IMG/VR virus record: IMGVR_UViG_3300000117_000017
Strand: one strand, 5' to 3'
DNA length: 64,000 bases
Source: an uncultured virus (IMG/VR IMGVR_UViG_3300000117_000017)
Taxonomy: Duplodnaviria > Heunggongvirae > Uroviricota > Caudoviricetes
In this document: positions 1,702-29,179 of the stretch, in pieces
Layout of the letters: every line of letters starts with the position of its first letter
How positions within the stretch are numbered: position 1 is the stretch's first letter
Translations under genes and position numbers: made by a program
Notes under the pieces: model-generated
What the model saw: the letters and a program-made list of their open reading frames with translations, nothing else
Told to the model about the DNA's origin: nothing
The model's database searches: none

Positions 1702-2043
1702 TTATGTTTGCTCCACGAACGATACTATAATATCTAATGAATCTGAATCTGATGAAACTGCTTTTAATATATTACCTGTTTGCATTATAATTTTATGATC
1801 ACCACCTACAATGACTTCAGTACCTCCTGGAGATATTGTTGCATTCTTAACGATGTGTGTAACTTGTCCTGCTGCACCGCTTGAGTCTTGAATACCTGCA
1901 CTAAAGTTTACATTATTGTTCGATAAAACGTTTGCGGCTGACATACCTATAACTATTGTTTTAGTAGCACTCGGACAAGTATATAATGTAGCAGAATCTG
2001 TACTTAATTGTGTATGCAATAAATTTTTTAAAGTATTTGCCAT
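1702..2043 (-). CDS. Small virion structural protein (beta-rich)
   Basis: 113-aa ORF tightly packed in the fibre operon; LYTCP..TKTIV motif. Confidence 0.6.
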   Translation of the reverse strand: MANTLKNLLHTQLSTDSATLYTCPSATKTIVIGMSAANVLSNNNVNFSAGIQDSSGAAGQVTHIVKNATISPGGTEVIVGGDHKIIMQTGNILKAVSSDSDSLDIIVSFVEQT

Positions 2044-2046
2044 TTG

Positions 2047-2244
2047 TTATCCTCCGAAAATCAATGAATTAAGCAAAGCCTGATTATCGGCAATTGTTGT
2101 TACTTCTGAAGAATCAGTAGAAATTACTAAAACCTGTGCTGAATCGAGTAATCCCGGAACTTCGATAGTTCTATCTATGTTGATTTTATTATCAACTACC
2201 GTGATTGCTTGTCCGAAATCTGCTAATTCTCTTGCTTTTGTCAT
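2047..2244 (-). CDS. Small virion protein
   Basis: MTKARELAD N-terminus typical of phage fibre-associated proteins; late promoter directly upstream. Confidence 0.6.
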   Translation of the reverse strand: MTKARELADFGQAITVVDNKINIDRTIEVPGLLDSAQVLVISTDSSEVTTIADNQALLNSLIFGG

Positions 2245-2249
2245 GTTAC

Positions 2250-2257
2250 TATTTATA
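2250..2257 (-). promoter_or_regulatory. T4-type late promoter TATAAATA
   Basis: Exact consensus on the minus strand, 5 nt upstream of the ATG at 2244. Confidence 0.75.
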
Positions 2258-2261
2258 CCTT

Positions 2262-2441
2262 TTAATCAGCTTCTTCTATTGTATTTCCTTCAGCTACCCA
2301 TTCTTGGATTGCTTGGTAGTCTGTATTTTCTAAATTTATTGGCACACAAAGTACAATATTGCTATCATTTAATTCTACTCTAATACCTGTTGGCTCTGTT
2401 TCAGAACCATAATGATAATATTTTGCTTTTTTAATGTTCAT
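2262..2441 (-). CDS. Putative tail fibre assembly chaperone (59 aa, below ORF-track cutoff)
   Basis: Manual translation MNIKKAKYY...VPINLENTDYQAIQEWVAEGNTIEEAD; paralogue of 5297..5473; follows a fibre gene. Confidence 0.7.
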   Translation of the reverse strand: MNIKKAKYYHYGSETEPTGIRVELNDSNIVLCVPINLENTDYQAIQEWVAEGNTIEEAD

Positions 2442-2450
2442 CTTTATCCC

Positions 2451-4563: not shown

Positions 4564-4566
4564 TTT

Positions 4567-5073
4567 TTATCCTACTAAAAATCCACTAAAATAACTTCTT
4601 ATTGGAACATACTCAGATGTTGTACCACTCGCTCGAATTTCTATATAAGTTCCTTGTGAGTACTGATATGTCCAAGTAGTACCTATTGTTTCATCATTTG
4701 CATCGCCATCATTTCTAAATACTCTAATTAGTGGAAATCCACTTTCTCTAAATTCACTTCCACTATGATAAATTGACCATGATGCTGAATTTGAAGTTTG
4801 TTTAATATATAAGTTAAACTGAAAACAATATACACCTGTAATCGGCACTGTAAATCTTCCGTTTGAAGTATCGTAATGACCACCTATATTATGATCTGTT
4901 GCATCTAGCTCAGTAACAATACCGCCACTACTAACTGATTGCCACGTTCCAGTAGTTCCATGTGCAAAGAATGATGGTTTAGCTGGCTGTAAAATTCTGC
5001 CTGTAGCATCAATAGTTGCTGCAGCTGTTCCATTCGGATGTTGTATACTCTGTGTTCCTAAAATACTGGTCAT
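4567..5073 (-). CDS. C1q-like domain protein (putative receptor binding)
   Basis: PSFFA...NIGGHYDTSNGRFTVPITGVYCF...FSGFLVG is the gC1q pattern. Confidence 0.75.
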   Translation of the reverse strand: MTSILGTQSIQHPNGTAAATIDATGRILQPAKPSFFAHGTTGTWQSVSSGGIVTELDATDHNIGGHYDTSNGRFTVPITGVYCFQFNLYIKQTSNSASWSIYHSGSEFRESGFPLIRVFRNDGDANDETIGTTWTYQYSQGTYIEIRASGTTSEYVPIRSYFSGFLVG

Positions 5074-5297
5074 ACTATCGTTAACACTCCGTTAATTTTT
5101 AAGTTTACATCTGAATCAATACTATATGGACCTACCACCATCGCACGTTCTGCAGAATCAATAGTGACGTTTACTCCTAAGTTTGCATAATTTATTGCAA
5201 AACTCTGTTTGATACCCTTACCACCTGTAACTAAAACTGCAGGTGAAGCAGAATCGCCATCAGGATATTGTATTGCTTTTACACCTATTGTACTCAT
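5070..5297 (-). CDS. Small virion protein; C-terminus paralogous to 7219..7605
   Basis: VGPYSIDSDVNLKINGVLTIV versus VGPFNVDSGVTITVNGTLMVV. Confidence 0.6.
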   Translation of the reverse strand: MSTIGVKAIQYPDGDSASPAVLVTGGKGIKQSFAINYANLGVNVTIDSAERAMVVGPYSIDSDVNLKINGVLTIV

Positions 5298-5473: not shown

Positions 5474-5475
5474 CG

Positions 5476-6703: not shown

Positions 6704-7222
6704 CTAAACTCCTATCAACTTATATGCACCAAATGATATTGTGTCTGCTTCAAATCTAGCATCACCATTAGTTACAGTATTAAGATAAACATACATTTCT
6801 AAATAGTCAGAACTACCATTCATGTCTACTACTAGGGAAAGACTAAGACCATATCTATGAGACTTAGAACTAGAATGTCCTTGTGAACTTGTTTTTAATA
6901 GCCTTGAGCCATTTTTATAAATACTGATATTACCATTATACATATCGTAATTAGTAGTGCTTTGTATGCTTCCTGTAATATTCACAAAATATTTACCTGC
7001 CGTGGTAGGAGTAAACCTATCTGATGCAAAGTTATTATCTGTGTCGAAGTCTTCAGTAAATCCAGTTACTTTAGTATCTGTATTATCAGAAAATTGAAAA
7101 GCATTTAGATTCCTTGCTTGAAATGCAGGTGTATTAGTCATTGCAATTGTTGCAATGCTAAACGAACCTGCTTGATTTGTAATAGCGTCAGTCTTTACTG
7201 TATTTACTTTTAAATCACTCAT
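6704..7222 (-). CDS. C1q-like domain protein
   Basis: TPAFQA...FDTDNNFASDRFTPTTAGKYF...DYLEMY...FGAYKL. Confidence 0.7.
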   Translation of the reverse strand: MSDLKVNTVKTDAITNQAGSFSIATIAMTNTPAFQARNLNAFQFSDNTDTKVTGFTEDFDTDNNFASDRFTPTTAGKYFVNITGSIQSTTNYDMYNGNISIYKNGSRLLKTSSQGHSSSKSHRYGLSLSLVVDMNGSSDYLEMYVYLNTVTNGDARFEADTISFGAYKLIGV

Positions 7223-7605
7223 ACTACCATCAATGTCCCGTTAACTGTTATTGTCACACCTGAGTCTACATTAAATGGACCTACTAATAATCCATTACTA
7301 TTTGAATCGATAATGTGGCTTCTCGATAAATTTTTTGGATTTGTTCTCAAATCTGCTGCAATCTTTCCTGTAATTGTAGTTGTTGTTATAATTGTATTTA
7401 TACTGGCTGAGTCTGCAGCATCTTGTCGTAGAGCTATGTATGCAGAGTCAACTTGAAATCCAATAGCTGAATCAATCATAGACTGAGTTGCGGCAGAATC
7501 TGTACCCGCAGTTTGTCTAAATTGAATATAATCAGAATCTATCAAACCTTTTACATGTGTATCAACATTTGTATGTAAGTTGAATGCTTGAATTTTCGTT
7601 GCCAT
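7219..7605 (-). CDS. Virion protein with Asp-Ser-rich repeats
   Basis: Shares TDSxATQxMIDSxIGFQVDSAYIxLRQ with the 1939-aa fibre. Confidence 0.6.
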   Translation of the reverse strand: MATKIQAFNLHTNVDTHVKGLIDSDYIQFRQTAGTDSAATQSMIDSAIGFQVDSAYIALRQDAADSASINTIITTTTITGKIAADLRTNPKNLSRSHIIDSNSNGLLVGPFNVDSGVTITVNGTLMVV

Positions 7606-10600
7606 TATGCAGGTGTCCTTATTTCTCTAAGTTTAAAACTTACATTTGTTTTTGTTGGTTTAAGTTTTAACCTTACATTACCACTATTTATATCCGCATC
7701 AAAAGTACCAAGTGTTGAATCGAGTAATACTTGTCCGTATGTCGTCATGGCTACAGTTGATCCATTATGTGTTAATAATATTTCTTCTGCGTGATAACTA
7801 CTACTTGCATCATGTTCGAGTTGTGCAATATATTTCATTGTTCTAAAACTTGCGGCTGCAAATGTATGAATAACTTGACCTGAATCTGTTGAAGTTAAAT
7901 CAGAATCAATTGCTCTTATTCCATTTATTTCTACAGTTGTTGCTTTAGCGAGTGATACAACTTCTACAATACTTCCTGTACTTACAGCTGAATCAAATAC
8001 AATCGATGTTCCATCAGTTGCAGTAAAATCTTTTCCAGTTGCAAGTCTTGCGCCGTTTAAGTATACTTCTACTTTACCGACATCATATGCCAATGTTGTT
8101 CCAGATGAATCAGCACCACTCACAGAATCCGATAACGCACCTAATGTGTAGAGATAAGGTTTATAATCTCTTAATATTAAGTTAGTAGAATGTAACTGAT
8201 GAGTTCGAACTTCAATTTCAGAAGATGAATCGGGTGCAGAATCAAGTGTTAATGTACTTCCTGATATGCTATATGTATTTGTGTGTTGTAATAGACCATT
8301 GACAAATACAAATGCATCATCAGAATCAGCCGGAGTATCTGTTAATGTAAATACTTTAGTTGAATTATTGCCAGAGAAACTACTTGTTGATACACTGTTA
8401 ATAGTTCCAGTAGTACCACCTCCGCTACCAACAGATGATTGTCTTAATTGAATATAAGCTGAATCAACTTGAAATCCAATTGATGAATCTATCATTGCTT
8501 GTGTTGCAGAAGAATCAGTACCAGATGATATTGTGATAGTTTTTGTTGCGCCAGATCCTGTTGCAGTTACACTGGTACCTACAAAGTTTAACGTTGTTGC
8601 GGCGGTTGATAAAGAAGATCCTTCTTCTTGTACGGTGATTGCACCACCCGATTGTCTAAGTTGAATGTAAGCAGAATCAATTAATTGTATAACTGCAGCA
8701 GAATCGATATTTCCACTTAATGCAGTTACAGAAGCAAATGATAAGTTACCACTACCATCTGTTCTAATTACATGATTATTCAAACCATCAGATGTTGGAA
8801 ATAATAATCCAGCAGCAGTTAATCTTGTAAATTTTGCGGAGTCTGCAGATATTTCACCTGTTACATTTACGCCAGAATCTGTTGTTGCTAATCTTGCAAG
8901 ATTATTAAAGAATAATGATACTGCACCGCCTGATAATGCTGTAATTTGACTTTCAGTACCTGCTGCATTTTGAACTGTTAAGTTATTTGTCTGAAGTTGT
9001 AAAGAACCTGTTCCAGCATCTTGAATTACACTATGACTTCCAGTATGGAATATTTTTAAATCACTATCATTACCGACTGATAATTTAGCTAAACCTCCTG
9101 CAGCTCCTCCATCAGGTGCTTGTATTCCATTAGCATTCATAAGTGTTATTGTTGCAGCAGAATCAGTTCCCGGTGATTGTCTTGCTTGTACATATGCAGA
9201 ATCGATAAGAGCAATTGCTTCTGCAGAATCGATACTTATTGCTTGTACTCTTGCATTTGTATAATAGAGATTAGTTTGTTCAGGAATATCTGCGGTACTT
9301 ACTTGGTTTGTACCTGTACCAAAATCGATATGTGTATCATCTATTCCATCAGCTTTAAGTGTTACTGCTCCTGATGAGACATCAAAGTGATCACTACTAA
9401 AAGATGCGATACCTTTATTAGATGATGTAGCATCTTCACCTGATATAGTACCACCTGATACATCGATACCTTCACCAGCTGCAAGATAACTTGCAACTCT
9501 TGCATCAGTATAATAAAGATTACTTCCTTCAGTTAAGTTTGATGTAGTAAATCCAGTTAAGTTGCGTGTTCCAATTACGAGTGCATGACCCATGTACCCG
9601 TGAGCAGAGCATTGATAATGTAGTACTGGAGGTGTAGCCTCCGTTACTGTGATTCTTGCATATGTTGCTGCAGTTGATACACCGGTAGTGTATTGTGTAG
9701 TTTTTGCTGCATCATAGTAGAATCTAAATGGATGACTTGACATATCACTTGAACTTAAGTTAAACTGATATGTTCTTCCAATTTGTAATTGAATTATTGG
9801 AGAATATGTGCCGTCAATTACGTATTTATTAGTACTACCTTGACCATTATAAACATGATCAGCAGTTTGTGTTGCAACTGTTACAGCAAATTCTTTTGTT
9901 ACTGCTGTATGTTGATTTCGTTCAACCGCAGTATTTGCAGAATCTTTTGCAAAGAAATAATCACTATCAAAGTTTTCTTTTGTATAAACTGATTCAACAT
10001 CAAAGGTAAATTGTCCTGTTCCTGAGTTATATGTTAAATCTCCACCAGCAGAGAATAAACCTCTTATTTCTGATGAATCAACTGAAATATTACCATCTGC
10101 TAAATCGATACCGTGACCACCCGCAAAGTGTGCTCTTACTTCACTTGCATTTGGTCCTGTGTATGTAAATATACCAGTAGCAGAATCATATGAGAAGCTT
10201 CCATCACCACCAGCATCGATTCCTATTAAAGCACTTCTTGCTGCAGAATCTGCTCTTGCCACTGTGTAATAAAGATTAGTTTGTTCTGGAATATCAGCTG
10301 TACTTACTTGATTTGTGCCTGTTCCAAAGTCGATATGAGTATCATCAATACCATCTGCTTTGATTGTAACTGCACCTGATGATACATCAAAATGATCACT
10401 ACTAAAAGAAGCTATACCTTTGTTTGATGCAGTAGCATCTTCTCCAGATATTTCACCAGAAGATATGTCAATACCTTCGCCGGCAGTTATATGAGCTCTT
10501 ACTTCAGAAGCAGAAGGACCAGTGTATGTAAAGATACCAGTTGCAGAATCATAACCGAATGAACCGTCTCCACCTGCGTCAACCGCAACTAGTGCACTTC

Positions 10601-13424
10601 TTGCTGCGCTATCAGCACGAGCTTCCGTGTAGTATAAATTAGTTTGTTCAGGAATATCTGCAGTACTTACTTGATTTGAACCTGTACCGAAGTCAATGTG
10701 TGTATCATCTATTCCATCAGCTTTAATACTTACTGCACCAGATGAAACACTAAAATGTTCTGTATTGAATGACGCTATACCTTTATTAGATGTAGTTGCA
10801 TCTTCACCTGAAATTTCTCCAGATGATATATCAATACCTTCACCAGCTGTGATATGTGCTCTTACTTCTGAAGCACTCGGGCCAGTATATGTAAATATAC
10901 CTGTAGCCGAATCATAACCAAATGATCCATCACCACCTGCATCTACCGCAACTAAAGAACTTCGAGCGGCTGAATCTGCTCGAGCTGTAGTATAATATAA
11001 ATTCGTTCCTTCAGATAAATCAGATGTAGACTTAGCGTTAAAGTCTGAATCAAATCCTAAGAAAGATCCTTGAAATGGTTTATTAAATACAAACTTATCA
11101 CCAGTTGCAGCATATGTTATTGTAGCACCTGCACCATTTATTGTGATACCCGCACCGTCTGCGGCTGCAGCATTTCCAGCAGAATCTGCAAGGACTATAT
11201 TTTTATCATTAATTGAAACTGTAGTTGAATTGATAGTTGTTTGTGTACCTTCAACTTGCAAATTACCAAGAATTTGTACGGTACCGGTATTATCACCAAT
11301 TGCAGCAGGATCAATTACAAAATTAGCAGGACCTCTTAATTGGTTAAATGTAGGATTAGCTGAAGAATCTAATGGTTGAGGAGCTCGTATTTCACCAGTA
11401 CCACTATTATATGTAATACCATTAGTTCCACTAAAATGCGCACGTACTTCTGATGCACTTGGTCCAGTGTATGTAAGAATTCCTGTAGAATTATTATAAG
11501 CTAAACTTCCATCACCACCTGCGTCAGTTACAGTTATGAATCCTCTTATTTGTTGTCTAAATAAGCTTGTAAGTTCTGCAGAATCAATTTTAATATCGCC
11601 GGAAGTAATTGCAATACCAGATCCTCCGGTAAAGTGTGCTCTTACTTCACTTGCATTTGGACCAGTATACGTAAATTGTCCGGTAGCACTATCATATGCA
11701 AAGCTTCCATCACCGCCTGCATCAACAGTATTTAAATAACCTCTTATTGTTTGTCTATATAAACTCGTTAATTCACTTGAATCAATTTTAACATCACCAG
11801 ATGTAATTGCAATACCCGTTCCACCTGTGAAATGAGCTCGTGTTTCGGATGCACTTGGTCCTGTATATGTAAATTTACCTGTAGCAGAATCGTAACTAAA
11901 TGATCCGTCACCTCCAGCATCGATTCCTAATAATGCGCTTCTTGCTGCACTATCAGCTCTTGTGTCAGTATAATATAAGTTAGTTCCTTCAGATAGATTT
12001 GTAGTTGAATTTGCATCAAATGCAGAATCAATATCGGAATCAACTCTTGATTTTAAGTAGTATAGATTAGTGCCTTCCGGCAATTGTCCGGTATTTGCAT
12101 CACCTAAATCAGAATCAAAATTAGCTTTAGTGTAAACCTGTTCTACATCAAATGTAAATTCACCGGTTCCAGAATTATATGTTAAATCACCGCCAGCTGA
12201 AAACATTCCTCTTACAGTTTGTCTATATAAACTTAATAATTCTGCAGAATCAAGTCTTATTACACCTGTTCCGTTATTATATCCAATACCATCGCCACCA
12301 CTGAAATGTGCACGTACTTCAGAAGCTGAAGGTCCGGTATAAGTAAATTTACCAGTTGCAGAATCATAAGTAAAACTACCATCACCACCCGCATCTGTTA
12401 CATTAAGATGAGCTCTTACTTCTGTTGGAGAAGGTCCAGTGTATGTAATTAATCCTGTGACATTGTTATATGTAAATGATCCATCGCCACCTGCATCAAC
12501 TGCACTAATATAACTTCGAATGTCTTGTCTAAAATACGCGGATAATTCTGAAGAATCTATATTGATTGTATCACTTGCTGAATCATAAGCAATACCAGTT
12601 CCACCTGCAAGTGCATCACCTAAATCTGATTCAAAATTATCTCTTGTATAAACTTGTTCTACATCAAATGTAAATTGGCCTGAGCCGGAATTATATGTTA
12701 AATCTCCACCAGCACTAAAATAACCACGAATATCTTGTTTGAAATTTGCTTCTAATTCTGCAGAGTCAATTCTTATTGTATCTGTGGCAGAATCATATGC
12801 TATACCTACGCCACCATCAAGTGCTGAACCTAAGTCTGAGTCAAAATTTGACTTAGTGTAAACTTGTTCTACATCAAACTCAAATCTACCAGATGTAGAG
12901 TCATAACTTAAATCGCCGCCTGAGCTAAAGTAACCTCTTATTTGTTGAATAGATCCTGCTAAATCGATATTTACCGCAGTGCCTGTGCTGTCTTTAACAC
13001 TAAAATCACCGCCGGAATCTTTAAGGTTTATACCTCCAAGATGTATTGTAGATCCACTTAAATATAAATCTCTAAATTTCTTGGCGCTGTCGCCTAAGTC
13101 AAATGAACTATCTAATGTAGGAACAATGTGGCCTTTTGTTGTAAGACCTGTTACAACTGGTGTTTTATCGGAATCTATAGCAATGATTAATTTATCATTA
13201 CCAGGCGAGTATTCTCTTGCTAATCCTTGACCGACATCGAATGTAAAGTTCTTAAATGCTGCTTCAGAAGAATCAAATACGAGTATTTGTCCATCCGATT
13301 TAGTGGATACGTCAAAGTCCGTGAATTCATCGATAGATAGTGTTTCTCTGGCAGTTGTTACTGGAGTTCCGAGTACTATCTTTTTTATGAAGGTCTGTTG
13401 ACCTACTGTTACTTTAATTGACAC
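7605..13424 (-). CDS. Long tail fibre / large repetitive virion protein (1939 aa)
   Basis: Many DAGGDGSFxYDSATGxFTYTGPSASEVRAH and EGTNLYYT repeats; C-terminal FRTMKYIAQL...EEILLTHNG...TYG domain seen in marine T4-like fibres. Confidence 0.8.
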   Translation of the reverse strand: MSIKVTVGQQTFIKKIVLGTPVTTARETLSIDEFTDFDVSTKSDGQILVFDSSEAAFKNFTFDVGQGLAREYSPGNDKLIIAIDSDKTPVVTGLTTKGHIVPTLDSSFDLGDSAKKFRDLYLSGSTIHLGGINLKDSGGDFSVKDSTGTAVNIDLAGSIQQIRGYFSSGGDLSYDSTSGRFEFDVEQVYTKSNFDSDLGSALDGGVGIAYDSATDTIRIDSAELEANFKQDIRGYFSAGGDLTYNSGSGQFTFDVEQVYTRDNFESDLGDALAGGTGIAYDSASDTINIDSSELSAYFRQDIRSYISAVDAGGDGSFTYNNVTGLITYTGPSPTEVRAHLNVTDAGGDGSFTYDSATGKFTYTGPSASEVRAHFSGGDGIGYNNGTGVIRLDSAELLSLYRQTVRGMFSAGGDLTYNSGTGEFTFDVEQVYTKANFDSDLGDANTGQLPEGTNLYYLKSRVDSDIDSAFDANSTTNLSEGTNLYYTDTRADSAARSALLGIDAGGDGSFSYDSATGKFTYTGPSASETRAHFTGGTGIAITSGDVKIDSSELTSLYRQTIRGYLNTVDAGGDGSFAYDSATGQFTYTGPNASEVRAHFTGGSGIAITSGDIKIDSAELTSLFRQQIRGFITVTDAGGDGSLAYNNSTGILTYTGPSASEVRAHFSGTNGITYNSGTGEIRAPQPLDSSANPTFNQLRGPANFVIDPAAIGDNTGTVQILGNLQVEGTQTTINSTTVSINDKNIVLADSAGNAAAADGAGITINGAGATITYAATGDKFVFNKPFQGSFLGFDSDFNAKSTSDLSEGTNLYYTTARADSAARSSLVAVDAGGDGSFGYDSATGIFTYTGPSASEVRAHITAGEGIDISSGEISGEDATTSNKGIASFNTEHFSVSSGAVSIKADGIDDTHIDFGTGSNQVSTADIPEQTNLYYTEARADSAARSALVAVDAGGDGSFGYDSATGIFTYTGPSASEVRAHITAGEGIDISSGEISGEDATASNKGIASFSSDHFDVSSGAVTIKADGIDDTHIDFGTGTNQVSTADIPEQTNLYYTVARADSAARSALIGIDAGGDGSFSYDSATGIFTYTGPNASEVRAHFAGGHGIDLADGNISVDSSEIRGLFSAGGDLTYNSGTGQFTFDVESVYTKENFDSDYFFAKDSANTAVERNQHTAVTKEFAVTVATQTADHVYNGQGSTNKYVIDGTYSPIIQLQIGRTYQFNLSSSDMSSHPFRFYYDAAKTTQYTTGVSTAATYARITVTEATPPVLHYQCSAHGYMGHALVIGTRNLTGFTTSNLTEGSNLYYTDARVASYLAAGEGIDVSGGTISGEDATSSNKGIASFSSDHFDVSSGAVTLKADGIDDTHIDFGTGTNQVSTADIPEQTNLYYTNARVQAISIDSAEAIALIDSAYVQARQSPGTDSAATITLMNANGIQAPDGGAAGGLAKLSVGNDSDLKIFHTGSHSVIQDAGTGSLQLQTNNLTVQNAAGTESQITALSGGAVSLFFNNLARLATTDSGVNVTGEISADSAKFTRLTAAGLLFPTSDGLNNHVIRTDGSGNLSFASVTALSGNIDSAAVIQLIDSAYIQLRQSGGAITVQEEGSSLSTAATTLNFVGTSVTATGSGATKTITISSGTDSSATQAMIDSSIGFQVDSAYIQLRQSSVGSGGGTTGTINSVSTSSFSGNNSTKVFTLTDTPADSDDAFVFVNGLLQHTNTYSISGSTLTLDSAPDSSSEIEVRTHQLHSTNLILRDYKPYLYTLGALSDSVSGADSSGTTLAYDVGKVEVYLNGARLATGKDFTATDGTSIVFDSAVSTGSIVEVVSLAKATTVEINGIRAIDSDLTSTDSGQVIHTFAAASFRTMKYIAQLEHDASSSYHAEEILLTHNGSTVAMTTYGQVLLDSTLGTFDADINSGNVRLKLKPTKTNVSFKLREIRTPA
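10130..11010. repeat. Internal tandem repeat of about 363 bp (121 aa) in the long fibre
   Basis: RADSAARS block recurs at about 10249, 10612 and 10975; a further partial copy lies at about 9250-9480. Confidence 0.8.
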
Positions 13425-18288: not shown

Positions 18289-18290
18289 AA

Positions 18291-19214: not shown

Positions 19215-19218
19215 GATA

Positions 19219-19824: not shown

Positions 19825-20026
19825 CTTTTCCCTCTATTAATTTCTGTAACATAGATTTCATTTCAGTAACATCGTTTTTTAAATCTTCAAAATCTTTTTC
19901 TTTTTGTCTTCTTTCAAGCTTTCTTTTTCTTGCCGCACTGATCTCATCTTTATTTATATTCAAAATAGCTCCTGTAGATGTATCTCTTACTAAGTTGCCG
20001 TTTCCTTCAACTTTTAAATATTTCAT
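19811..20026 (-). CDS. Conserved T4-like hypothetical protein
   Basis: KVEG.GNLVRD..TGAILN plus coiled coil; typical position after VrlC-like genes. Confidence 0.6.
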   Translation of the reverse strand: MKYLKVEGNGNLVRDTSTGAILNINKDEISAARKRKLERRQKEKDFEDLKNDVTEMKSMLQKLIEGKDGSH

Positions 20027-21609
20027 TACGCGCTCAATGCTATAGCGCGTAATGAAGATATTGATGGAACAAGTGCTTGGTTAGTACTTCTAAATACTAT
20101 TTTTAATTGAAATTTAGTAAATGCTGCTATATCTCCGCCTTGGCCTCCTATAAGATACGTGTATTCTCTAAAAATGCTAGGGTTTTCATCAGTTGGAATA
20201 ACTGTTTCTTGAGATGCTAAGATAAAATTTTGTGTCACTATAGAAGTATCGGCATCAGCTGTTCTAAAATAAACTTGAAAATCAGCAGTCGATGGTCTGT
20301 TAGCAGACAACAATACTTTTAATCCTACAGCTTCTTCATTTAAAACTATTGTCTTAGTTAAATGTTTAGCTGCACTGCTTCCACCTCTCGCTGAAGTTTC
20401 GTCTACATATGCTAATGGAACATTGTGATTATCTAATATAGTTTCATTTTGTTTGTCAATTATATTACTTATTAGTCCTACAGAAGTTCTTTGTAAATCT
20501 AACATAGGTGCCATATTAGAATCAGCATTTACTATTGAAATATTAAAATCTAGAGACTTTATTCCAGCACCAATATCACTTGTTTCAGCACTGTCATGAG
20601 CTATCATCATTAAAGTACTTTTAGTATTGTTTTCATTAATTTGCACAGATTCAAATGATGATTGTTTTTGAAATGCTGTCTCAATTCCTGCGTAAGATTT
20701 TCCGGTAGTAGTTTTAACACTAGCATTAAATTGCTGGCCTGCAGGTATTAACGCAGCTATTGATGGATATATGTTATTATACAATATATTTTTAGTAGAT
20801 TGAATAATAGTTCCTCCACCGAAAGCATCTGAATCTGCAGCAGAATCTGATGTGAAAGTATAACCAGTGTGATCAATTGCTGTAATAGTATGACGCTGAT
20901 TTAATGTTGAAGCAGATATTCCGCCTACACCTGCAGAATCAACACCAGATAAAGTTATAGGTTGACCAACTTGCATACCATGATTAGCATGAGTCACTCT
21001 TACTGTTTGCGATGTTGAAATAGTTTTTAAAGGATTTGGATTAAGTAGTTGCTTAGGAACTGGCGCATTATGTAATGCTATAGTCGCAGTTGAATGTTTA
21101 AATTTTGCTTGATATATTTTAAAAGTTAAATCTTGATTTTGTGAAGGAGTGAATGTTGAGCCATTTTGTGAATAGAATAAACTTCCTAATACAGGTTGTT
21201 TATTTACACGCTTCTCTGTAGAACCTACTACAAAATCATTAATTTCAGCTATATAAATTTCATAATCTTTTGAATCTGCTATGACTACTAATGCATATTC
21301 ATTTAATCCTTTCAAATACGTAGGCTCATCAAATTCAAATGTAGTTGCTGTAGTAGCATCTGCAGATATACTTGCTCCACCTGAAAACGTACTACCCGGT
21401 AATGATTTTATAGTTCCTGGGATTATAGTGTTCGATGAAGGAAACCCATTAACCATAGGCCTAATTTGTACTTGTATCGGAGCGTTTTCATCAGCTGCTT
21501 TAAAAAATAAATCTACTTTAGTGCAATAAATTCCTGCAGGATCATCGATGTAAAACGATTGAGCTATTGGTTGCTTTCCAACTCTATATCCGGTTGATGT
21601 TACTGACAT
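20026..21609 (-). CDS. C-terminal half of VrlC/DUF4815-like structural protein
   Basis: PIAQSF...TKVDLFF...GSLFYSQNGSTFT.SQNQDLTF...FQLKIV...LRAIAL. Confidence 0.7.
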   Translation of the reverse strand: MSVTSTGYRVGKQPIAQSFYIDDPAGIYCTKVDLFFKAADENAPIQVQIRPMVNGFPSSNTIIPGTIKSLPGSTFSGGASISADATTATTFEFDEPTYLKGLNEYALVVIADSKDYEIYIAEINDFVVGSTEKRVNKQPVLGSLFYSQNGSTFTPSQNQDLTFKIYQAKFKHSTATIALHNAPVPKQLLNPNPLKTISTSQTVRVTHANHGMQVGQPITLSGVDSAGVGGISASTLNQRHTITAIDHTGYTFTSDSAADSDAFGGGTIIQSTKNILYNNIYPSIAALIPAGQQFNASVKTTTGKSYAGIETAFQKQSSFESVQINENNTKSTLMMIAHDSAETSDIGAGIKSLDFNISIVNADSNMAPMLDLQRTSVGLISNIIDKQNETILDNHNVPLAYVDETSARGGSSAAKHLTKTIVLNEEAVGLKVLLSANRPSTADFQVYFRTADADTSIVTQNFILASQETVIPTDENPSIFREYTYLIGGQGGDIAAFTKFQLKIVFRSTNQALVPSISSLRAIALSA

Positions 21610-21612
21610 ATT

Positions 21613-24600
21613 TTAACTCGCCTTTTTTAATAATTGTTTATATTGGCCATGAACTGTGTAAATGTTATTGTTACAATACACATCAAAGCTTTCATTAGTT
21701 GTTCCTATATAAACTGTAGGAATAATTTTTTCAATAAAATCTATGGTTTCTACTTTTACGCCATTTATATAGTTACCAATTTCAACCTCTTCTGTTCTCT
21801 TCCAACCTAAGTTAGTTAAAACAGGGTGATCATTAGTTATTTTTAATTCATTATTAATTATGTAATAAGCATTTCTCATGTGTTTTTGCATAACCTCTGT
21901 CACTAAGCTTCCAGAAACAATATCTCCTACTTTAACATTTACCACTGTCGATAACACACCATTCAACATTACTAACATATCTTCTAATAGACATGCCACA
22001 CCATAACCGTTATCATCAGTATAACCGTGTTCATCACCATTCATGCCGCCGCCAGGACCATCGTCTTGATTATTATTAGTATAGGTAGGTATACCTAAGT
22101 GCACACCTACTTTAGATGCAATGGCGTTATTGATTGCATTGATTGCATTTGAGTGTGACAGGTACCCAGATTTTGGTGCTGGATCGGTATAGTTTAGCCC
22201 ATATCCATTTGCATCAGCATAATTGCTAAATTGTTGATCAATTAAGCCTAAACTCACTACGGCTGTAGCTAAGTTAACACCCCAATCATCAGTGACTGGT
22301 GATTTATGGTCTCCACCCTCGTTATATGATATTAAACCTCCAGTTTGCACTATGACTCGAGTAGACTCATATGTAGCTTGTTTAGTGTCTAAAAACCCTT
22401 GCGAAGTGTAGTTAGTTGAAGCCATTGCTGCAGCATCAGTCTCTTTGTCTACACTTATATCTAACACTTTAAATTCTCTAGTTCCAGTTCGTATTCTAGT
22501 TGTATCATTGTTTGGCACTATAAATGATCCAGAAACTGTTCCATTTGCATCTGTAACGAGTGTTGAAGATCCTGATGGGTGTATTGTTACATCACTTAGT
22601 GTATTACCAAAATCAGAATCTGTGTCTGAATAATGTTGGAACAAAGTAGGACCGCCGCCACCGTTTGTTAAGCTTGTAATATTGACTCCGTCTAAGAAAG
22701 TAAATACTCGTGTATTAGGTCTTAAACCTTCAGCTCTAAAATAAACTTTTCTTGATCTCATAAAATTTGCTGTTGTAGTTTCAATAATTCTATCATTTAC
22801 TATATTCAACAACGTTTCTCCAGTTGCAACTGCAGGAACAGCATCTTTACCACTATTTCCAGCCCAGTTTGCGATGTGATCATTAAATTGATAAGCGGGT
22901 ATAGGTGAAATAAGAGTGCCTCCTTGAATTATCTTGTCAGGAACTCTTTCTACATCTCTCCATTCATCAGAAGAAGGTGACAGTGTAATTGTTCCTTCAT
23001 ATATAGTAACTGAAAACGGATTAACTTTAACAGCTTTACTTGCTGTTGTCTGATTTATGTATTCACTTTGATCATACTTTATATAAACGTTATCACCTCT
23101 TTTTATAGTGTTAGTAGATGATGCTGAATCATATGTTAATCGTATTTGATCATGTCTTGTCATAGGCCTTACTACTCGATTTGTAAAATCAGTTGAAGCT
23201 CTATATTCATACGGCACTGACATTTCTGCACCGCGATGATCTTTAAATGCATCTACAAAAAAGCCACTCTTAGTTCTATCATTTCCAGAAGAATCTAAAA
23301 CTTGTAAATATTTAGTATCAGTTTCTAATAAATTTAATGTAGTTGTTTCTTCAAGTCTCTCTACTCTGTTTTCTAATTTACCTATATCTTTCATAGTAAA
23401 TCTTTTAAAATTGTATTTTGATAAAGACACGTCAGAATCATTTAGTACACCAGGATTCATTATTATATCATATAATGGTAAACTACCATCTGGAGTTACA
23501 GGCAAAATCGGATTAAATCCAGGAGCTCCGAATACAAAATCTAATTTTGAGTTTTTATCTATGACTAGTTTTGCTGGAGTAGCTAAATTGTAAGTAACAT
23601 CTGCAGTTATAGTGCTTCCATCTTGAGGAGTTTCTAACATAGTTGCACCACTGGTATTAAAGTTTCCAGCAGAATCTGATACTGACCTAAAATCTATGAC
23701 ATCTCTTAAATTTATTAACTGGCCTCCACCTAAATTATAATTAGGTATTTTATCATAATCAACTTGACCAGCATACGAATTTACAGAAAAGTAATCTCCA
23801 CCGCCAGTTGGATCAAAGAATTTGTATTTCATAGAAACACTTCCAGACGGCGCCGATTGACCTGATCTTAATATTAGTCTACCAACATCATAATGTGATG
23901 GGCGTTGACCGTTGTCAACAATAAACCTCGTTGCATAGCTTTCATTACTGTCAGATGCATTAACAATTTCATCTACTTCATAAATATCTGCACGTTTCAT
24001 ATTAACAAATTTAAAACCTGCACCATCTGATTCAACAGTATTTGTTAAAGTCATATTTGTCAATGTTTTAGTTTTAGGAGTTGTTTGTGTTTTACTTACA
24101 AATGCTGCGAGTTCTATATTAGAAGAACTTGAAATAGTTGCAACATCTGCAGCTGTTCCAAAGTTTGCAGTACCACCTGTTGGTGCTGAAGCACTAGGTG
24201 TTAAAGAATATGAAGGTGTAGCTGCCGATACATCACTATCTGCCTTTGCAAAAACAAAATCACCTGTCTGTGTATAAATTTCTCCAGCTGTTGTTAATCC
24301 CGTAAGTGTTACTACACCCGAACCATTTGCAGACAGAGTTGGAAATCTTCTTTGAGCTGTGTAAGTTAAATCTGATAGAGCTGTAGGCCTTGGATTAGGT
24401 AATGAGAAAAAATTATATTTTTCATAAGGTTCTTTTAGTACACCTTTAGAGTTTTCAAGTGTAATATTAAAAAAGTTACTAGTAGATGTGCCTATACTTT
24501 TGACATCTCTAAAAACTTCGCCAGAATTAAGATTAATATCTATGAGATGCATTTTTAAATTAGTACCACTTTTAGTTATTGCTTTAACTCGTGCTGTACC

Positions 24601-25827
24601 AATTGTACTTCCACCATGCGTGACAGCTGATCTTAAATTCATTTCTTCTAATTGATTGAAGTTTGGTATACCTTTTGTTTTTCCTAAACCGCTATGTGCC
24701 ACATCTACAAATACATATGCTCCATGAGTTGCACCCACTGGTTCGTTGTTTACAGTGGTCGTTACAGCTGGTTTTGTTATTCTAAAGGTTGAAGGTTTTG
24801 TTACAATTGATCTAAAACCTCTAACCACTGCAACACCGTCACTAACATTTAAAAGTAAATGTGTGTTTTGTGAATCTAAGTCAAATCTAGCAGAGAAAGG
24901 TTTGACTATATAATCACCAGAATTCTCTTCTATTCTCTTTGCAATAAGTTCATTAGGTATATTATATGAATTTGTTGTGGCAACTGCACTATATATCTGA
25001 CCTTTTTTAATTGTTGCAACATGAACAAAGTTATCACTTGATGTCATTTCACTACGTTCAGCTATTGTAAGCGTTATACGATATCTATCAGCGCCTGGAG
25101 CAGAAACATTCGGAACACTTCCTTGATTATCGTATAATGCATTGTTATCACTTGCAGTTACAACGTCTTCAACTGTTTTAAATCCGATATCAGTATCTGG
25201 TATATCAGTATATTTTGATATTATCTTAGATTGATCTTGAGTTAATACAAAATTACCTCTTACATAATATATACCGCCTAAAGCCGTAACTTGTGTTCCT
25301 TTTCCAGTTGATGGATCTGCTATTGTAGAAAGTTTTACTTTTAAATCAGTTCCGTCTGACACATCCATTACTTCGTTACCAGACATTCGTTGTGTTACAA
25401 CATCAGTGCTGCCTTGAGCTGAACTTGTGTTTGTGTACTTAACATAAAGAGTTGCAGGATCACTGCCTACTGCAGCAACCACTTCTAGTATTGTTGCAAC
25501 TATTGATGAAGTTTGCCCTGTTACAGTTTTACCTACAAGTGTTGTTATATCTGTTGGTAAAACATGCGATGGATCAGTTGTATCGAGTTTTATAAATTCA
25601 TATTGAGGATTTACATTTACTCCGCCTGGTTTTACTACAGCACCTTCTTTAAATACGTTATTACCAAATCTTTCTATTTGACTTTGCAATATCGTTTGAA
25701 GTTGTGTTAACTCTCTTGCTTGTAATCCAACACCTGTATTGAATAATATTCTATGATAGTTATCACTATCACGAAAATCATCTTTATATGTGGTTGCTAA
25801 ACTGGTTTCTGTGAATGTTGTCGCCAT
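21613..25827 (-). CDS. N-terminal half of VrlC/DUF4815-like structural protein with C-terminal Hint domain
   Basis: YHRILF..G..LQARELTQLQTILQ, APGADRY, RFTMKDIGKLE.RV..LE, KSGFFVD.F motifs; Hint blocks in the last ~126 aa. Confidence 0.8.
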   Translation of the reverse strand: MATTFTETSLATTYKDDFRDSDNYHRILFNTGVGLQARELTQLQTILQSQIERFGNNVFKEGAVVKPGGVNVNPQYEFIKLDTTDPSHVLPTDITTLVGKTVTGQTSSIVATILEVVAAVGSDPATLYVKYTNTSSAQGSTDVVTQRMSGNEVMDVSDGTDLKVKLSTIADPSTGKGTQVTALGGIYYVRGNFVLTQDQSKIISKYTDIPDTDIGFKTVEDVVTASDNNALYDNQGSVPNVSAPGADRYRITLTIAERSEMTSSDNFVHVATIKKGQIYSAVATTNSYNIPNELIAKRIEENSGDYIVKPFSARFDLDSQNTHLLLNVSDGVAVVRGFRSIVTKPSTFRITKPAVTTTVNNEPVGATHGAYVFVDVAHSGLGKTKGIPNFNQLEEMNLRSAVTHGGSTIGTARVKAITKSGTNLKMHLIDINLNSGEVFRDVKSIGTSTSNFFNITLENSKGVLKEPYEKYNFFSLPNPRPTALSDLTYTAQRRFPTLSANGSGVVTLTGLTTAGEIYTQTGDFVFAKADSDVSAATPSYSLTPSASAPTGGTANFGTAADVATISSSSNIELAAFVSKTQTTPKTKTLTNMTLTNTVESDGAGFKFVNMKRADIYEVDEIVNASDSNESYATRFIVDNGQRPSHYDVGRLILRSGQSAPSGSVSMKYKFFDPTGGGDYFSVNSYAGQVDYDKIPNYNLGGGQLINLRDVIDFRSVSDSAGNFNTSGATMLETPQDGSTITADVTYNLATPAKLVIDKNSKLDFVFGAPGFNPILPVTPDGSLPLYDIIMNPGVLNDSDVSLSKYNFKRFTMKDIGKLENRVERLEETTTLNLLETDTKYLQVLDSSGNDRTKSGFFVDAFKDHRGAEMSVPYEYRASTDFTNRVVRPMTRHDQIRLTYDSASSTNTIKRGDNVYIKYDQSEYINQTTASKAVKVNPFSVTIYEGTITLSPSSDEWRDVERVPDKIIQGGTLISPIPAYQFNDHIANWAGNSGKDAVPAVATGETLLNIVNDRIIETTTANFMRSRKVYFRAEGLRPNTRVFTFLDGVNITSLTNGGGGPTLFQHYSDTDSDFGNTLSDVTIHPSGSSTLVTDANGTVSGSFIVPNNDTTRIRTGTREFKVLDISVDKETDAAAMASTNYTSQGFLDTKQATYESTRVIVQTGGLISYNEGGDHKSPVTDDWGVNLATAVVSLGLIDQQFSNYADANGYGLNYTDPAPKSGYLSHSNAINAINNAIASKVGVHLGIPTYTNNNQDDGPGGGMNGDEHGYTDDNGYGVACLLEDMLVMLNGVLSTVVNVKVGDIVSGSLVTEVMQKHMRNAYYIINNELKITNDHPVLTNLGWKRTEEVEIGNYINGVKVETIDFIEKIIPTVYIGTTNESFDVYCNNNIYTVHGQYKQLLKKAS

Positions 25828-25839
25828 ATTAATATCCTA

Positions 25840-27210
25840 TTATAGTGTAACTACTACTTTAATATCTTCTGTTTGTGTAGAAGTTCTAATAACTGGTGCT
25901 CTATTTTCTATATATAAAACTTCTCCAGAAGTGTTAATGTATAACTCATTTGAATCTGCAACTACAGCAATTGTTCCGGTTTGACTTCCTTCGTCAGTAA
26001 GAGTATCTCCTACTGAGAACGGTGTATAACCGGTACTGTCGGTTTGATGATAGTAAACTTTCATACTAGAGGCAGCAAAATTTACTTTTTCATTAACGTA
26101 TGCTTTTGCTGGTGGTGTTAAGCTATTTGTAATCAATTCGTCAATAGATAATTGATTTCCAAAAGCTGAATCCACTTGTAAATATTTTAAAGCTTTAGCA
26201 GTAGTTGCAGTAAGAATTGTTCCATTAGCTGAGTCAGTACGTGGATTTCTAATCAACATTACTTGTCTGTAGTCTTGACTAGTTCCTGTTAAAAAATCTC
26301 CATTTTCTGTTCCAGCTGGTTTAGAGTTAAACATCAATGATGTAGCTTTCAATTCATCTCTTGGATCTGCACCAATTCCATCAGGTGGACCGAGCACAGC
26401 TCTTGCTGTTGCACCGCTTCCACCGCCACTTGAAATTGTAACTGTTGCATTTGTAAAATTCTTCCCTGAACCTGCACTTTCATTTAACATGTCAATCTTA
26501 ACAATTTTTTCACCTGATACAATTGCAGTTGCTTGTGCACTATCACCTATAGCGCCACCGTTTCCTGTTATTGTAACAATAGGAGTGCCTGTGTATCCTG
26601 ACCCTTGATTCTCTACTACAATATTAAGTATTCTACCTGCATCTGCAGAGTCTTGCGCAGCTTTTTGTTGTATTTCAAACGTATCGCTGGCAGTGGTTAC
26701 AAGTTTAACTGGAATAAAGTTAGCCGATAAGAATGCAGCTGTATCACTACCAGATAATCCATATAAAAACCTCCAAGTGTACCCATCTGAAGTTTTAAAT
26801 GGTTTTGGTGATGTGCCAGTAGGTTTAACTGTTGATTTATTTATAGTACCAGTTCCGCTTTTGCTTTGCTGTAAACAAATATAAACATGGTTATCTTCAG
26901 TAAGAACATAATAAGTATTTGATGGTATTGTGCTATAATCGTCATCATAACCGCTATATTCGCTACCAGAGCTCCAATTGTGTCTTGGTATTACAAAGGA
27001 TGTTGAGCCTACAGCTTTTACGGATTGTAAAGCATTTTGTGCTTCTCTTATTGTTTTAGGTGTATCTGTCGGCGTTGGAACAGTTTCGGTTGAGTTCCAT
27101 TGATCATTTTTTCCAATACCTATATAATATCTTGCAGTTAAACCTGAAGCTTCATCAAATATTTTTTGCATGAATTGTTTTTTAAACGAGTCTGTTATTA
27201 TTGCTGACAT
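25840..27210 (-). CDS. gp8: Baseplate wedge subunit gp8
   Basis: IPRHNW.SG..Y, YVLT....VYICL, DGYTWRFLY, SGEVLYIENR.P..R...QTEDIK. Confidence 0.85.
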   Translation of the reverse strand: MSAIITDSFKKQFMQKIFDEASGLTARYYIGIGKNDQWNSTETVPTPTDTPKTIREAQNALQSVKAVGSTSFVIPRHNWSSGSEYSGYDDDYSTIPSNTYYVLTEDNHVYICLQQSKSGTGTINKSTVKPTGTSPKPFKTSDGYTWRFLYGLSGSDTAAFLSANFIPVKLVTTASDTFEIQQKAAQDSADAGRILNIVVENQGSGYTGTPIVTITGNGGAIGDSAQATAIVSGEKIVKIDMLNESAGSGKNFTNATVTISSGGGSGATARAVLGPPDGIGADPRDELKATSLMFNSKPAGTENGDFLTGTSQDYRQVMLIRNPRTDSANGTILTATTAKALKYLQVDSAFGNQLSIDELITNSLTPPAKAYVNEKVNFAASSMKVYYHQTDSTGYTPFSVGDTLTDEGSQTGTIAVVADSNELYINTSGEVLYIENRAPVIRTSTQTEDIKVVVTL

Positions 27211-27220
27211 ATTCTATTCC

Positions 27221-28153
27221 TTATGATACCGTTACTTCGCCTTGGTTACCTATTAAGAACCAATTAGTTCCATCCCAAATACAGGTACAACCATCATTTT
27301 GTGCTAATACAAACTTAGTGCCTTGAGCAAAATTTGCAGGTGTAACATGCATTGCACCTGCACCTTTATTTGTAAAAATTTTATATTCACCTACTGTTGT
27401 TCCATCAGCTAATGATACATCTAGTTGAGAACTTTTATTTCCTATTATTAAAGTTGCTGCTGTACTTGCCGCACCGTTTGCAGTTATAGTTGAAGAACTA
27501 AAAGCTGCCTTATTTAATTCTACCGAACCTGTACCTTTAGGTGCCATTATAATATTTAAATTAGCTCCACCTCCTGTTGCAGAAAGTGTAGGACCAGTAG
27601 TTGATGCACCGTTTGCAATTGTTAATTCGTTTACTGCACTTCCAGTTTTTACAAATTTAATTAATTCGTTACCTGTTGAATCTGATATTTGTGTACCAAT
27701 TTTCGGATTATTTATTAATGGTGAAGATAATGTTTTATTAGTTAATGTATCTGTTGTGGCTCTTCCTATAAGTGTATCTGTTGATGTAGGTAGAGTTAAT
27801 GTTCCTGTATTCTTTATTGATGCGATTATTGGTGCTGTTAGTGTTTTGTTAGTTAACGTCTGAATTGCATTGTCAAGTGTAATAATTCCTGTAGAATCTG
27901 GTAATGTAATAACATTGTCCTGTGTAGCGTTTGTTGCTTTTAATCTTGTTTCAAAATCATTGGCACTTGAACCTTCAAATGTTACTGCATCATTTTCTAA
28001 AGTGATTTGTGTTGATAAGTTACTACTATCACCTCCACCGAGTAATGCATATACTTCAGCAAAGTTTGAATTTATCTTTGTTCCGGCTTGTCGTAATGTA
28101 TCACCATTACCGTCATTAGCTGAACTGCCTATACCAATATTTTGTCTAGTCAT
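27221..28153 (-). CDS. Baseplate gp9/gp10-like tail fibre connector
   Basis: N-terminus RQNIGIG..ANDGNGDTLRQAGTKINSNF matches the T4 gp9/gp10 N-terminal motif; TLTNKTL repeats. Confidence 0.75.
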   Translation of the reverse strand: MTRQNIGIGSSANDGNGDTLRQAGTKINSNFAEVYALLGGGDSSNLSTQITLENDAVTFEGSSANDFETRLKATNATQDNVITLPDSTGIITLDNAIQTLTNKTLTAPIIASIKNTGTLTLPTSTDTLIGRATTDTLTNKTLSSPLINNPKIGTQISDSTGNELIKFVKTGSAVNELTIANGASTTGPTLSATGGGANLNIIMAPKGTGSVELNKAAFSSSTITANGAASTAATLIIGNKSSQLDVSLADGTTVGEYKIFTNKGAGAMHVTPANFAQGTKFVLAQNDGCTCIWDGTNWFLIGNQGEVTVS

Positions 28154-28173
28154 TTAATCTTCCTAATAAGTTC

Positions 28174-28181
28174 TATTTATA
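28174..28181 (-). promoter_or_regulatory. T4-type late promoter TATAAATA
   Basis: Intergenic exact consensus; context TTCTATTTATACATAAAAA identical to the site at 31533. Confidence 0.8.
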
Positions 28182-28195
28182 CATAAAAATAATCG

Positions 28196-29179
28196 TTATG
28201 TGTTAAAAGATGAATCGAACTGTGCGTTATCCATTGTCTCAAGAGTAAGTGAGAAATCTGGTGCAGCTGCTTCAGCACTATCACCTAATGCACCAACAAA
28301 GTCTTTTCCTTGGCCACTATCATCAAATGTAAATGAATTAGGCGTAATGATTTCTTCAACGTTTCTATAAAATCCCTGAAGTTGTAAAGCAGTAAGTGAC
28401 TGATATACACTAATTTTTTGGTCAAGGCCTACTCTGATAGATGTTCCATCAGAATCAAGCAGTGCAGTCATTTGTGTAAATGGTACAAATGCTGATCCAA
28501 TTCCAATGCCTTCTAGTACTCTAGATGCACTATCGAGATTTGCTAATGGTGCAGATGCATTTCCTATAGCTTCAGTGTCTGTTACAACACTTCCTGCAAT
28601 GTAAAACCCTGCAGGATGCACAAACTTTTTATATAGTTCTATCCAAGTGGTTTGCGATAATGGGCTTTTTATTAATATAGAATAAACCTGGTATAGCGCA
28701 TTATTTCTAATAAGTTTATTTGATTCTGCACCAATTCTGCTTAGTGGTCCAGCAGAATCATGGCCTACCGTAAATATATCTCTCTTTGGATATTCTACTT
28801 CTGCATTTTGTTGAAAGAAAGCTCTAAAAAATTCTTCAATTGAAAACCTACTACCTTTAGTTCTATGTAATTCGTGTATTCTTTGTGCATAAAAATTAGG
28901 ATCAGTGAAGTTGTCACCAGTGTTGCCTGCAGCTATTTCTGATATCAATGTACTTAAAAGCTTTGAAGGTACTTCTTGAGTATCACGTGTTTGATATATT
29001 TGTCTTAGTTGATTATCAAAGGAACTAACATCATCTGAATCTAAGTAGTCATAATACTTTTCTAAAAAAGTGACGAGCTTTGGAAAATCTTGTGTAAAAA
29101 ATTCAGGTAAAGCATCACGTACTTTTCTATGGATAAAGTTACGTGGTCTACGATTTTGATGATATTTAATTTCAGCCAT
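28196..29179 (-). CDS. Baseplate wedge gp7-like (short form)
   Basis: LPEFF...FLEKYY, TKGS..SIE.FFR.FF, YQVYSILIKS, VHPAGF; follows gp6. Confidence 0.65.
   Translation of the reverse strand: MAEIKYHQNRRPRNFIHRKVRDALPEFFTQDFPKLVTFLEKYYDYLDSDDVSSFDNQLRQIYQTRDTQEVPSKLLSTLISEIAAGNTGDNFTDPNFYAQRIHELHRTKGSRFSIEEFFRAFFQQNAEVEYPKRDIFTVGHDSAGPLSRIGAESNKLIRNNALYQVYSILIKSPLSQTTWIELYKKFVHPAGFYIAGSVVTDTEAIGNASAPLANLDSASRVLEGIGIGSAFVPFTQMTALLDSDGTSIRVGLDQKISVYQSLTALQLQGFYRNVEEIITPNSFTFDDSGQGKDFVGALGDSAEAAAPDFSLTLETMDNAQFDSSFNT

Follow-up and report, generated by a model that had tools for sequence, protein, structure and literature searches.

An Asp-Ser motif in excess on the outer tail proteins of a marine T4-like phage lineage, a candidate short linear tag

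The window analysed here is the whole stretch of 64,000 nucleotides from the uncultured virus record IMGVR_UViG_3300000117_000017 of IMG/VR, and it belongs to a T4-like marine myovirus with about 35% G+C. The element under study is the pair Asp-Ser (DS), often extended to Asp-Ser-Ala (DSA), which is in excess in the outer baseplate and fibre proteins encoded between positions 1702 and 29179. The baseplate set is encoded on the minus strand and comprises gp48, gp53, gp5, gp25, gp6, a gp7-like protein, a gp9/10-like protein and gp8. These genes are followed by VrlC (DUF4815) and by a long run of fibre genes, and the replication genes gp32 and NrdJ are placed further along. The closest named relatives, at low identity, are Pelagibacter phage HTVC008M and cyanophages, and the hosts of the nearest cultured relatives are SAR11 (Pelagibacter) and OM43 (Methylophilales), not Bacteroidota.

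Passages of PMC7029224 describe in pelagimyophages a hypervariable host recognition cluster (HRC), which runs from VrlC to gp14 and in which tail fibres are found together with GT8 glycosyltransferases and radical SAM cassettes. In our phage VrlC matches DUF4815 (E 1.6e-47), fibres and an island of enzyme genes are present, and gp13- and gp14-like genes lie about 16 kb past the window start. The latter are carried by a near-identical IMG/VR contig of the same phage (L060/L061), which extends 16.5 kb past window position 1 and adds about 25 more small fibre-like or fibre-assembly genes, ending in the gp13- and gp14-like ones. The window together with this extension fits the variable VrlC-gp14 layout in those passages.

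The expected number of DS pairs was obtained from 500 rounds of shuffling of each protein, and the set consisted of the 21 minus-strand proteins of 1702-29179 (7,629 amino acids). The proteins of this region are the following, with their DS counts.

1702..2244, minus strand: two small proteins of 113 and 65 amino acids, with 4 and 2 DS against 0.7 and 0.5 expected
5070..5297, minus strand: 75-amino-acid protein, 3 DS against 0.5
7219..7605, minus strand: 128-amino-acid small fibre-associated protein, 7 DS against 1.0
7605..13424, minus strand: repetitive tail fibre of 1939 amino acids with PHROG tail fibre or structural matches, 54 DS (28 of them DSA) against 19.5
13436..13789, minus strand: 117-amino-acid protein resembling phrog_1084 and L-shaped tail fibre assembly proteins, 2 DSA against 0.6 DS expected
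17809..19214, minus strand: two conserved proteins of 159 and 307 amino acids that flank the island in relatives, 0 and 1 DS, not DS-rich
19219..19824, minus strand: 201-amino-acid fibre-like protein, 5 DS against 1.9, kept in orthologues
20026..25827, minus strand: VrlC (1404 amino acids, DUF4815), 9 DS against 8.4, and a separate 527-amino-acid protein resembling the VrlC C-terminus, 6 DS against 2.9
25840..27210, minus strand: baseplate wedge protein gp8, 7 DS against 2.8, in variable loops and at positions that turn over among orthologues
27221..28153, minus strand: gp9/gp10-like connector, 3 DS against 1.3
28196..29179, minus strand: gp7-like baseplate wedge protein of 327 amino acids, 7 DS against 2.1, most positions kept down to about 30% identity

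The 128-amino-acid protein and the C-terminal part of the fibre have a DS-rich helical segment in common, and the former gave no match in the phage collection. Residues of about 300-385 of the fibre, and its repeats, hold a DAGGDGSF(x)Y loop which resembles the calcium loops of calmodulin EF-hands; searched against PDB sequences the fibre gave calmodulin-like matches only, none of them significant. No match to PDB sequences was obtained for four window proteins of no assigned family.

DS is found 115 times in the 21 proteins where 51.1 are expected (standard deviation 6.8, z 9.4), a number that none of the 500 shuffles reached, and it ranks first among all dipeptides with an expectation above 5. 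The excess does not depend on the fibre, as the remaining proteins hold 61 DS against 31.4 (again 0 of 500 shuffles). A sequence-only reading of this DNA had drawn attention to the DS pairs from manual counts, all of which proved exact on recount, including the 54 DS and 28 DSA of the fibre, the three in NrdJ (49829..52042; DSI, DSK, DSK) and none in gp32 (44680..45567). It had proposed comparison with related pairs and collapse of the repeats. In that comparison only DS is raised, with SD at 56 against 51.1, DT at 42 against 55.5 and ES at 16 against 26.6. Repeats were masked as 30-residue windows whose alignment to a preceding stretch of the set scored higher than the best of 150 shuffled windows, which removed 1,095 of the 1,939 residues of the fibre. 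After this the excess persists, with 82 DS against 38.1 (Poisson P 4.5e-10), or 58 against 30.6 without the fibre, and the fibre itself retains 24 against 7.5.

The third residue is also restricted. DSA is the top tripeptide of the set (55 against 4.6; 34 against 3.2 after masking; 27 against 2.6 without the fibre) and DSD is the second (19 against 3.6). Ala is the favoured residue after DS, followed by Asp and Ser, as had been noticed from the letters alone; Gly, which had been included with them, is not enriched (0.5-0.6 times expectation). In 57% of DS sites the Asp follows a hydrophobic residue or Ala, compared with 32-38% in controls. DSA is absent from the other 46 proteins (29179-64000; 11,144 amino acids), where 3.6 are expected, and DS is not in excess in the inner baseplate genes of 29179-40315 (11 against 21.3), in those past 40369 (19 against 25.0) or in the island (4 against 5.7). 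The three adhesin paralogues are not enriched either (2 against 2.5, 2 against 0.8 and 2 against 1.3), in agreement with the caveat first attached to them. In the L060/L061 extension there are 51 DS against 30.6 expected, 7 DSA against 2.3 and 8 DSD against 1.9; DS is absent from the gp13-like protein and is found 5 times against 2.7 in the gp14-like one, which is cut. The DS excess is real, directional, present at the level of amino acids and confined to outer virion proteins.

An excess of this kind could be a by-product of composition, of repeats or of a DNA signal, for instance selection for GANTC methylation sites, which are contained in the codon pair GAY-TCN. This pair encodes 90 of the 115 DS, in-frame GANTC is found 99 times against 88.6 in synonymous-codon shuffles, and TCN codons account for 78% of the Ser residues that follow Asp compared with 62% of other Ser (Fisher p 0.0007). 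However, shuffles that preserve composition, together with repeat masking, leave the excess standing. In the two other reading frames GANTC is found 8 and 5 times where 9.4 and 9.7 are expected, and the idea of selection for this site was rejected because it is not enriched out of frame. Moreover Glu-Ser, which can also encode GANTC, is the depleted pair already mentioned, 25 DS sites are encoded by AGY and all six Ser codons are used at DS sites. An artefact or a DNA-level cause is nearly excluded, and we regard it as very improbable.

To compare orthologues, 55 related loci were fetched, all of them on contigs that are fragments. At the seven DS sites of the window's gp8, seven motif-poor orthologues (49 alignment cells) hold DS in 1, another pair made of Asp, Glu or Asn followed by Ser or Thr in 3, other residues in 33 and a gap in 12. 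The 15 DS sites of VrlC and the 527-amino-acid protein gave the same kind of picture in 75 cells (DS 10, related pairs 8, other residues 52, gaps 5), and in the C-terminal part of VrlC the motif-poor relatives present GG, GA, SI, TE, NA and other pairs in place of DS. The repeat module of the fibre is also present in the cultured Roseobacter phage CRP-207, which has T-A, S-A and N-S at the window's DS positions. The CRP-207 fibre has 2 DS against 3.7 expected and the Syn9 fibre 7 against 7.5, with DSA absent from both; HTVC008M holds 172 against 202 as a whole and 56 against 50.8 in its outer proteins, and phage C48C1 is DS-poor except for one connector protein of 1568 amino acids, in which Glu, Asp or Ala comes next at 24 of 31 DS sites. 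These homologues without the motif indicate that the folds and modules can do without DS and that the lineage of the window installed it. As judged from the alignments, DS was gained in this lineage at places where relatives hold unrelated residues.

The DS excess is graded along the gp8 tree, in which the ratio of observed to expected DS is as follows.

Clade of the window: 1.6-2.6
Sister of the window's clade: 1.4-2.2
L009, L019 and L020: 1.1-1.4
Clade of HTVC008M: 0.6-1.1

In gp8 the sites turn over, as six motif-rich sequences hold 6-9 DS each but spread them over 25 distinct columns; these positions lie in variable loops and are far less conserved than other Asp and Ser residues, whereas the density of the motif is kept. 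In addition, the residue after DS differs between lineages. It is Ala in the clade of the window and in the sister groups of that clade (enriched 3.3-5.3 times), whereas in the sister lineage formed by L009, L010, L019 and L020 the top tripeptide is DSD (13-17 against 1.5-1.8). The switch from Ala to Asp occurs at shared columns, for example columns 329 and 990 of VrlC, and the sites unique to one clade bear that clade's own flavour. A generic cap or turn would not predict this switch, which is expected from a reader whose specificity drifts. The proposal that DS sites were selected across unrelated outer virion proteins is in this way supported by directional excess, lineage-specific gains and gp8 turnover, for DS followed by Ala, Asp or Ser and not for DS followed by Gly.

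Structural proteins of other relatives have peptide biases of their own: GN in L025 (99 against 40, in GNV, GNL and GNI repeats), YVD in L011 (24 against 0.6) and SG in L013-L017 (247 against 142). These are probably driven by repeats.

The enzyme genes that interrupt the fibre cluster form an island of five genes with 27-30% G+C, placed on the plus strand at 13886-17832. They and the sequence element before them are listed here.

13873..13880, plus strand: TATAAATA, T4-type late-promoter-like, ending 5 nucleotides before the first ATG of the island (13886)
13886..14437, plus strand: small GT-A-like protein of 183 amino acids with invariant F-D-L-D, matching phrog_1962 'glycosyltransferase' (E 2e-6)
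14349..15041, plus strand: methyltransferase-like protein of uncertain start, with weak class I methyltransferase and protein-L-isoaspartate O-methyltransferase matches
15038..15937 and 15813..16712, plus strand: two paralogous GT8-like glycosyltransferases of 299 amino acids with invariant D-x-D
16687..17832, plus strand: radical SAM/SPASM-domain enzyme, from domain matches

The description of this cluster as a glycosyltransferase island is fair, since three of its genes are GT8-like or GT-A-like. The Atlas neighbours of the small GT-A-like protein carry PF03407 or PF01501, and in a profile search against the PDB its best matches were glycogenin and SseK1 (E 0.3-1.7, not significant). In the family alignment of the 299-amino-acid pair D105 and D107 are invariant and PF01501 is matched by 4 of 11 members (best E 8.7e-6); the two window proteins themselves do not match it, their Atlas neighbours carry it in 20-23% of members, and the GT8-like profile found no match in the PDB. 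The methyltransferase-like protein gave NF001453 (E 1.5e-4), TIGR00080 (E 0.009) and PF01135 (E 0.056), matches that cover the SAM-binding part and fall far under the cut-offs. Asp-Ser is prone to isoaspartate formation, and no support was found for a link between this property and the methyltransferase-like gene.

Late expression of the island, which had been assumed, is hinted at by the TATAAATA that stands 5 nucleotides before its first ATG; the window-wide count of this element is at chance (16 against 11.5 expected). Copies at 2250-2257 (minus strand), 13873-13880 (plus strand) and 40868-40875 (plus strand) each stand 5-6 nucleotides before an ATG on the same strand, and further sites (28174, 31533, 40352, 13844) lie 21-55 nucleotides upstream of baseplate genes. 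The copies close to an ATG may give leaderless late transcripts or late transcripts with a very short leader. In the loci L001-L033 a conserved trio, made up of the 307-amino-acid protein, the 159-amino-acid protein and the small GT-A-like gene, stands beside a highly variable enzyme cassette. Depending on the relative this cassette contains GT8, methyltransferase, radical SAM/SPASM, carbamoyltransferase, GDSL, nitroreductase-like or QueC-like genes. The 307-amino-acid protein has six Asp-Thr pairs, five of which are kept in 20-29 of 30 orthologues.

The sequence-only reading had gone further and taken the serines of the DS sites as acceptors for these late-expressed neighbouring glycosyltransferases, which would give a glycan-coated tail. 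The island does sit within the fibre cluster, on the opposite strand, with three GT-A- or GT8-like genes and with TATAAATA directly before its first ATG, and this phage has no other enzyme cluster in the interval from VrlC to gp13/gp14. Cytoplasmic GT-A enzymes that glycosylate proteins exist, and the weak resemblance of the small GT profile to glycogenin and SseK1 points the same way. However, genes homologous to the small GT-like, the GT8-like and the methyltransferase-like ones occur in several relatives that show no such signal, among them L012, L013, L015 and L017, where DSA is found 0-1 times and DSD not at all. Conversely L052 is motif-rich (gp7-like protein 6 against 2.4, gp8 8 against 3.0, start of the fibre 10 against 3.0) and lacks an island in the stretch from VrlC to the fibre, with L055 being similar; presence and absence of the island were judged here on fragment contigs, so that transferases elsewhere in those genomes are possible. 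Of the island L005 has just the small GT-like gene, in the form of a distant homologue (an open reading frame of 194 amino acids, 26% identity), along with unrelated radical SAM/SPASM genes, and its orthologues are DS-rich to the same degree as those of the window. In the tree of the small GT-like proteins the motif-rich phages split into two clades, both well supported, and in each case the sister group is motif-poor; this mismatch with the gp8 tree indicates that the DS trait moves together with the structural genes and that exchange of the island is independent of it. Passages of PMC7029224 assign such transferases to modification of the O-chain of host lipopolysaccharide, and no Asp-Ser motif appears in those passages. 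The island as writer of the motif is thus not supported, in view of its homologues in motif-poor relatives and of motif-rich phages that lack it at this locus, and we consider this role quite improbable.

The explanation that we prefer, with a rough probability of 0.4, is that Asp-Ser followed by Ala, or less often by Asp or Ser, and commonly with a hydrophobic residue in front, serves as a short linear tag that has been selected on the outer tail and is read by something. Selection would have installed this tag repeatedly on proteins of the outer baseplate and the fibres in a single marine T4-like, pelagimyophage-like lineage. The likeliest reader would be a serine-modifying enzyme at work in the cytoplasm, either ahead of tail assembly or in the course of it, with O-glycosylation as the leading candidate modification, and this reader may be encoded by the host or outside the VrlC-fibre stretch. 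In its fullest form, which we hold tentatively, the clade would run a sequon-directed serine modification of the outer tail that has diverged into DSA and DSD, with the writer outside the HRC or supplied by the host, and the coating would tune adsorption, stability or escape from proteases of hosts or grazers.

A second explanation is purely structural or physicochemical and involves no modification. DS would be a helix N-cap, an Asx-turn former or a cation-binding or solubility element, used as a building style of the lineage. Much of what speaks for it weighs also against a tag. In the gp7-like, 201-amino-acid and 527-amino-acid proteins the DS positions are kept, and better so than other Asp and Ser residues. 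Segments of the type DSAExxxLI, with Glu enriched at +3 and hydrophobic residues at -1 and at +7/+8, have the look of a helix N-cap, and the hydrophobic residue before the Asp hints at a semi-buried structural setting. In the AlphaFold2 model of the 201-amino-acid protein, which is weak (predicted local distance difference test score, pLDDT, of 56.5), two of five DS are the last residue before a helix. In a beta-turn repeat of the fibre DSA alternates with NNV or NNS (6 copies versus 2) in an Asx-turn-like manner. Nearness to indels, taken as a proxy for loops, is not significant for DS sites (15 of 35 versus 61 of 170, p 0.45), and the preference for TCN after Asp may stem from Ala or Thr codons. 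In addition, an O-glycosylation sequon would not usually leave DT at 0.76 of its expectation, the DS trait is not followed by any gene of the regions covered, and PF01973 (sialyltransferase/Maf-like) was not found in the window's open reading frames or in six related records (fragments of 22-36 kb).

Helix-start-like sites such as DSAEVLALI and DSAYIQLRQ exist, and the DAGGDGSF loops are faintly EF-hand-like (E 0.5, not significant). Structure accounts for the DS sites partly, at most. The downstream context is helix-like in just 22 of 114 sites, turn-like in 50 and other in 42, which is near the spread of other Asp residues and means that DS is not tied to one structure; helix propensity is flat across DS (0.503 versus 0.500). 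The AlphaFold2 model of the gp7-like protein (pLDDT 42.1) is unusable and that of the 201-amino-acid protein is too poor for exposure mapping. Moreover, homologous folds and modules of other lineages do without DS, the DS sites of gp8 turn over, and a generic capping role would not predict DSD in the sister lineage and DSA here. A purely structural origin is for these reasons somewhat less probable than a tag, but it is a serious rival. The known case nearest to it is the helix N-capping box with hydrophobic staple, as in the Asp-Ser-Leu that starts helix II of acyl carrier protein. The subset DSA-E-x-x-x-L-I after a hydrophobic residue looks like such a helix start; however, it covers at most about one fifth of DS sites and leaves the lineage-specific gains and the DSA/DSD switch unexplained.

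If the motif is a tag for modification, it can be compared with known systems. The general protein O-glycosylation sequon of Bacteroidota is given in parts of PMC8550257 and PMC8729774 as D-(S/T)-(A/I/L/V/M/T), and, in the latter, the system acts on proteins exported from the cytoplasm. The analogy had been drawn on first sight of the sequence and holds in part. In both cases three residues open with Asp-Ser, with Ala favoured in third place, and occur in many unrelated proteins, and DSA is 12 times enriched here. However, Thr is not used in our phage (DT 42 against 55.5), Ile, Leu, Val and Met after DS are nearly absent (Leu 1, Val 2, Met 1) where Asp and Ser are preferred, assembly of tail proteins is cytoplasmic whereas the targets described in PMC8729774 are exported, and the likely host is not a member of the Bacteroidota. 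The nearest chemical analogue of the DSD flavour is the Ser-Asp repeat of staphylococcal adhesins, to which SdgB and SdgA add N-acetylglucosamine and which glycosylation protects from proteolysis, as part of PMC3794999 describes. There too a Ser beside an Asp is the modified unit on adhesive surface proteins, and the DSD of the sister lineage resembles the repeat unit. The DS sites of our phage are isolated and do not form long tandem SD (SD 56 against 51.1), with DSDS found once (1702..2043). The window yielded no enzyme family of the SdgB type.

Mycobacteriophage virions are reportedly glycosylated by phage-encoded glycosyltransferases (Freeman et al. in 2023), the targets being said to be the capsid and the tail tube and a short sequon-like motif not to be part of the system. 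The likeness lies in phage glycosyltransferase genes placed beside structural genes, which here are the GT8-like paralogues and the small GT-A-like gene in the fibre cluster; the targets in our phage would differ, being baseplate and fibres. Sequon-like tags and phage-made virion glycans are thus each known, but a full-text literature search gave no report of a short tag written tens of times on baseplate and fibre proteins of abundant ocean phages, and a tag repeated in this way on the outer tail is not in print.

Two further observations concern genes outside the tail region. Adjacent open reading frames of 282 and 396 amino acids at 58563-60594 both match HTVC008M gp130 'cytidyltransferase' and phrog_3041, and the gp130-type cytidyltransferase gene seems split or rearranged there. 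Directly downstream of the gene for the B12-dependent ribonucleotide reductase lies one for a SegE-like GIY-YIG homing endonuclease (49183-49584).

Should the tag mark a modification, a major marine phage group would have a tail surface that differs chemically from what its genes show, and this would bear on host recognition, on decay rates and on structural work. If the motif is structural, it would be a clear example of a rule for building fibrous proteins that is specific to one lineage. In both cases the DS motif is a simple sequence marker of this clade and gives a prediction for virion mass spectrometry that is directly testable.

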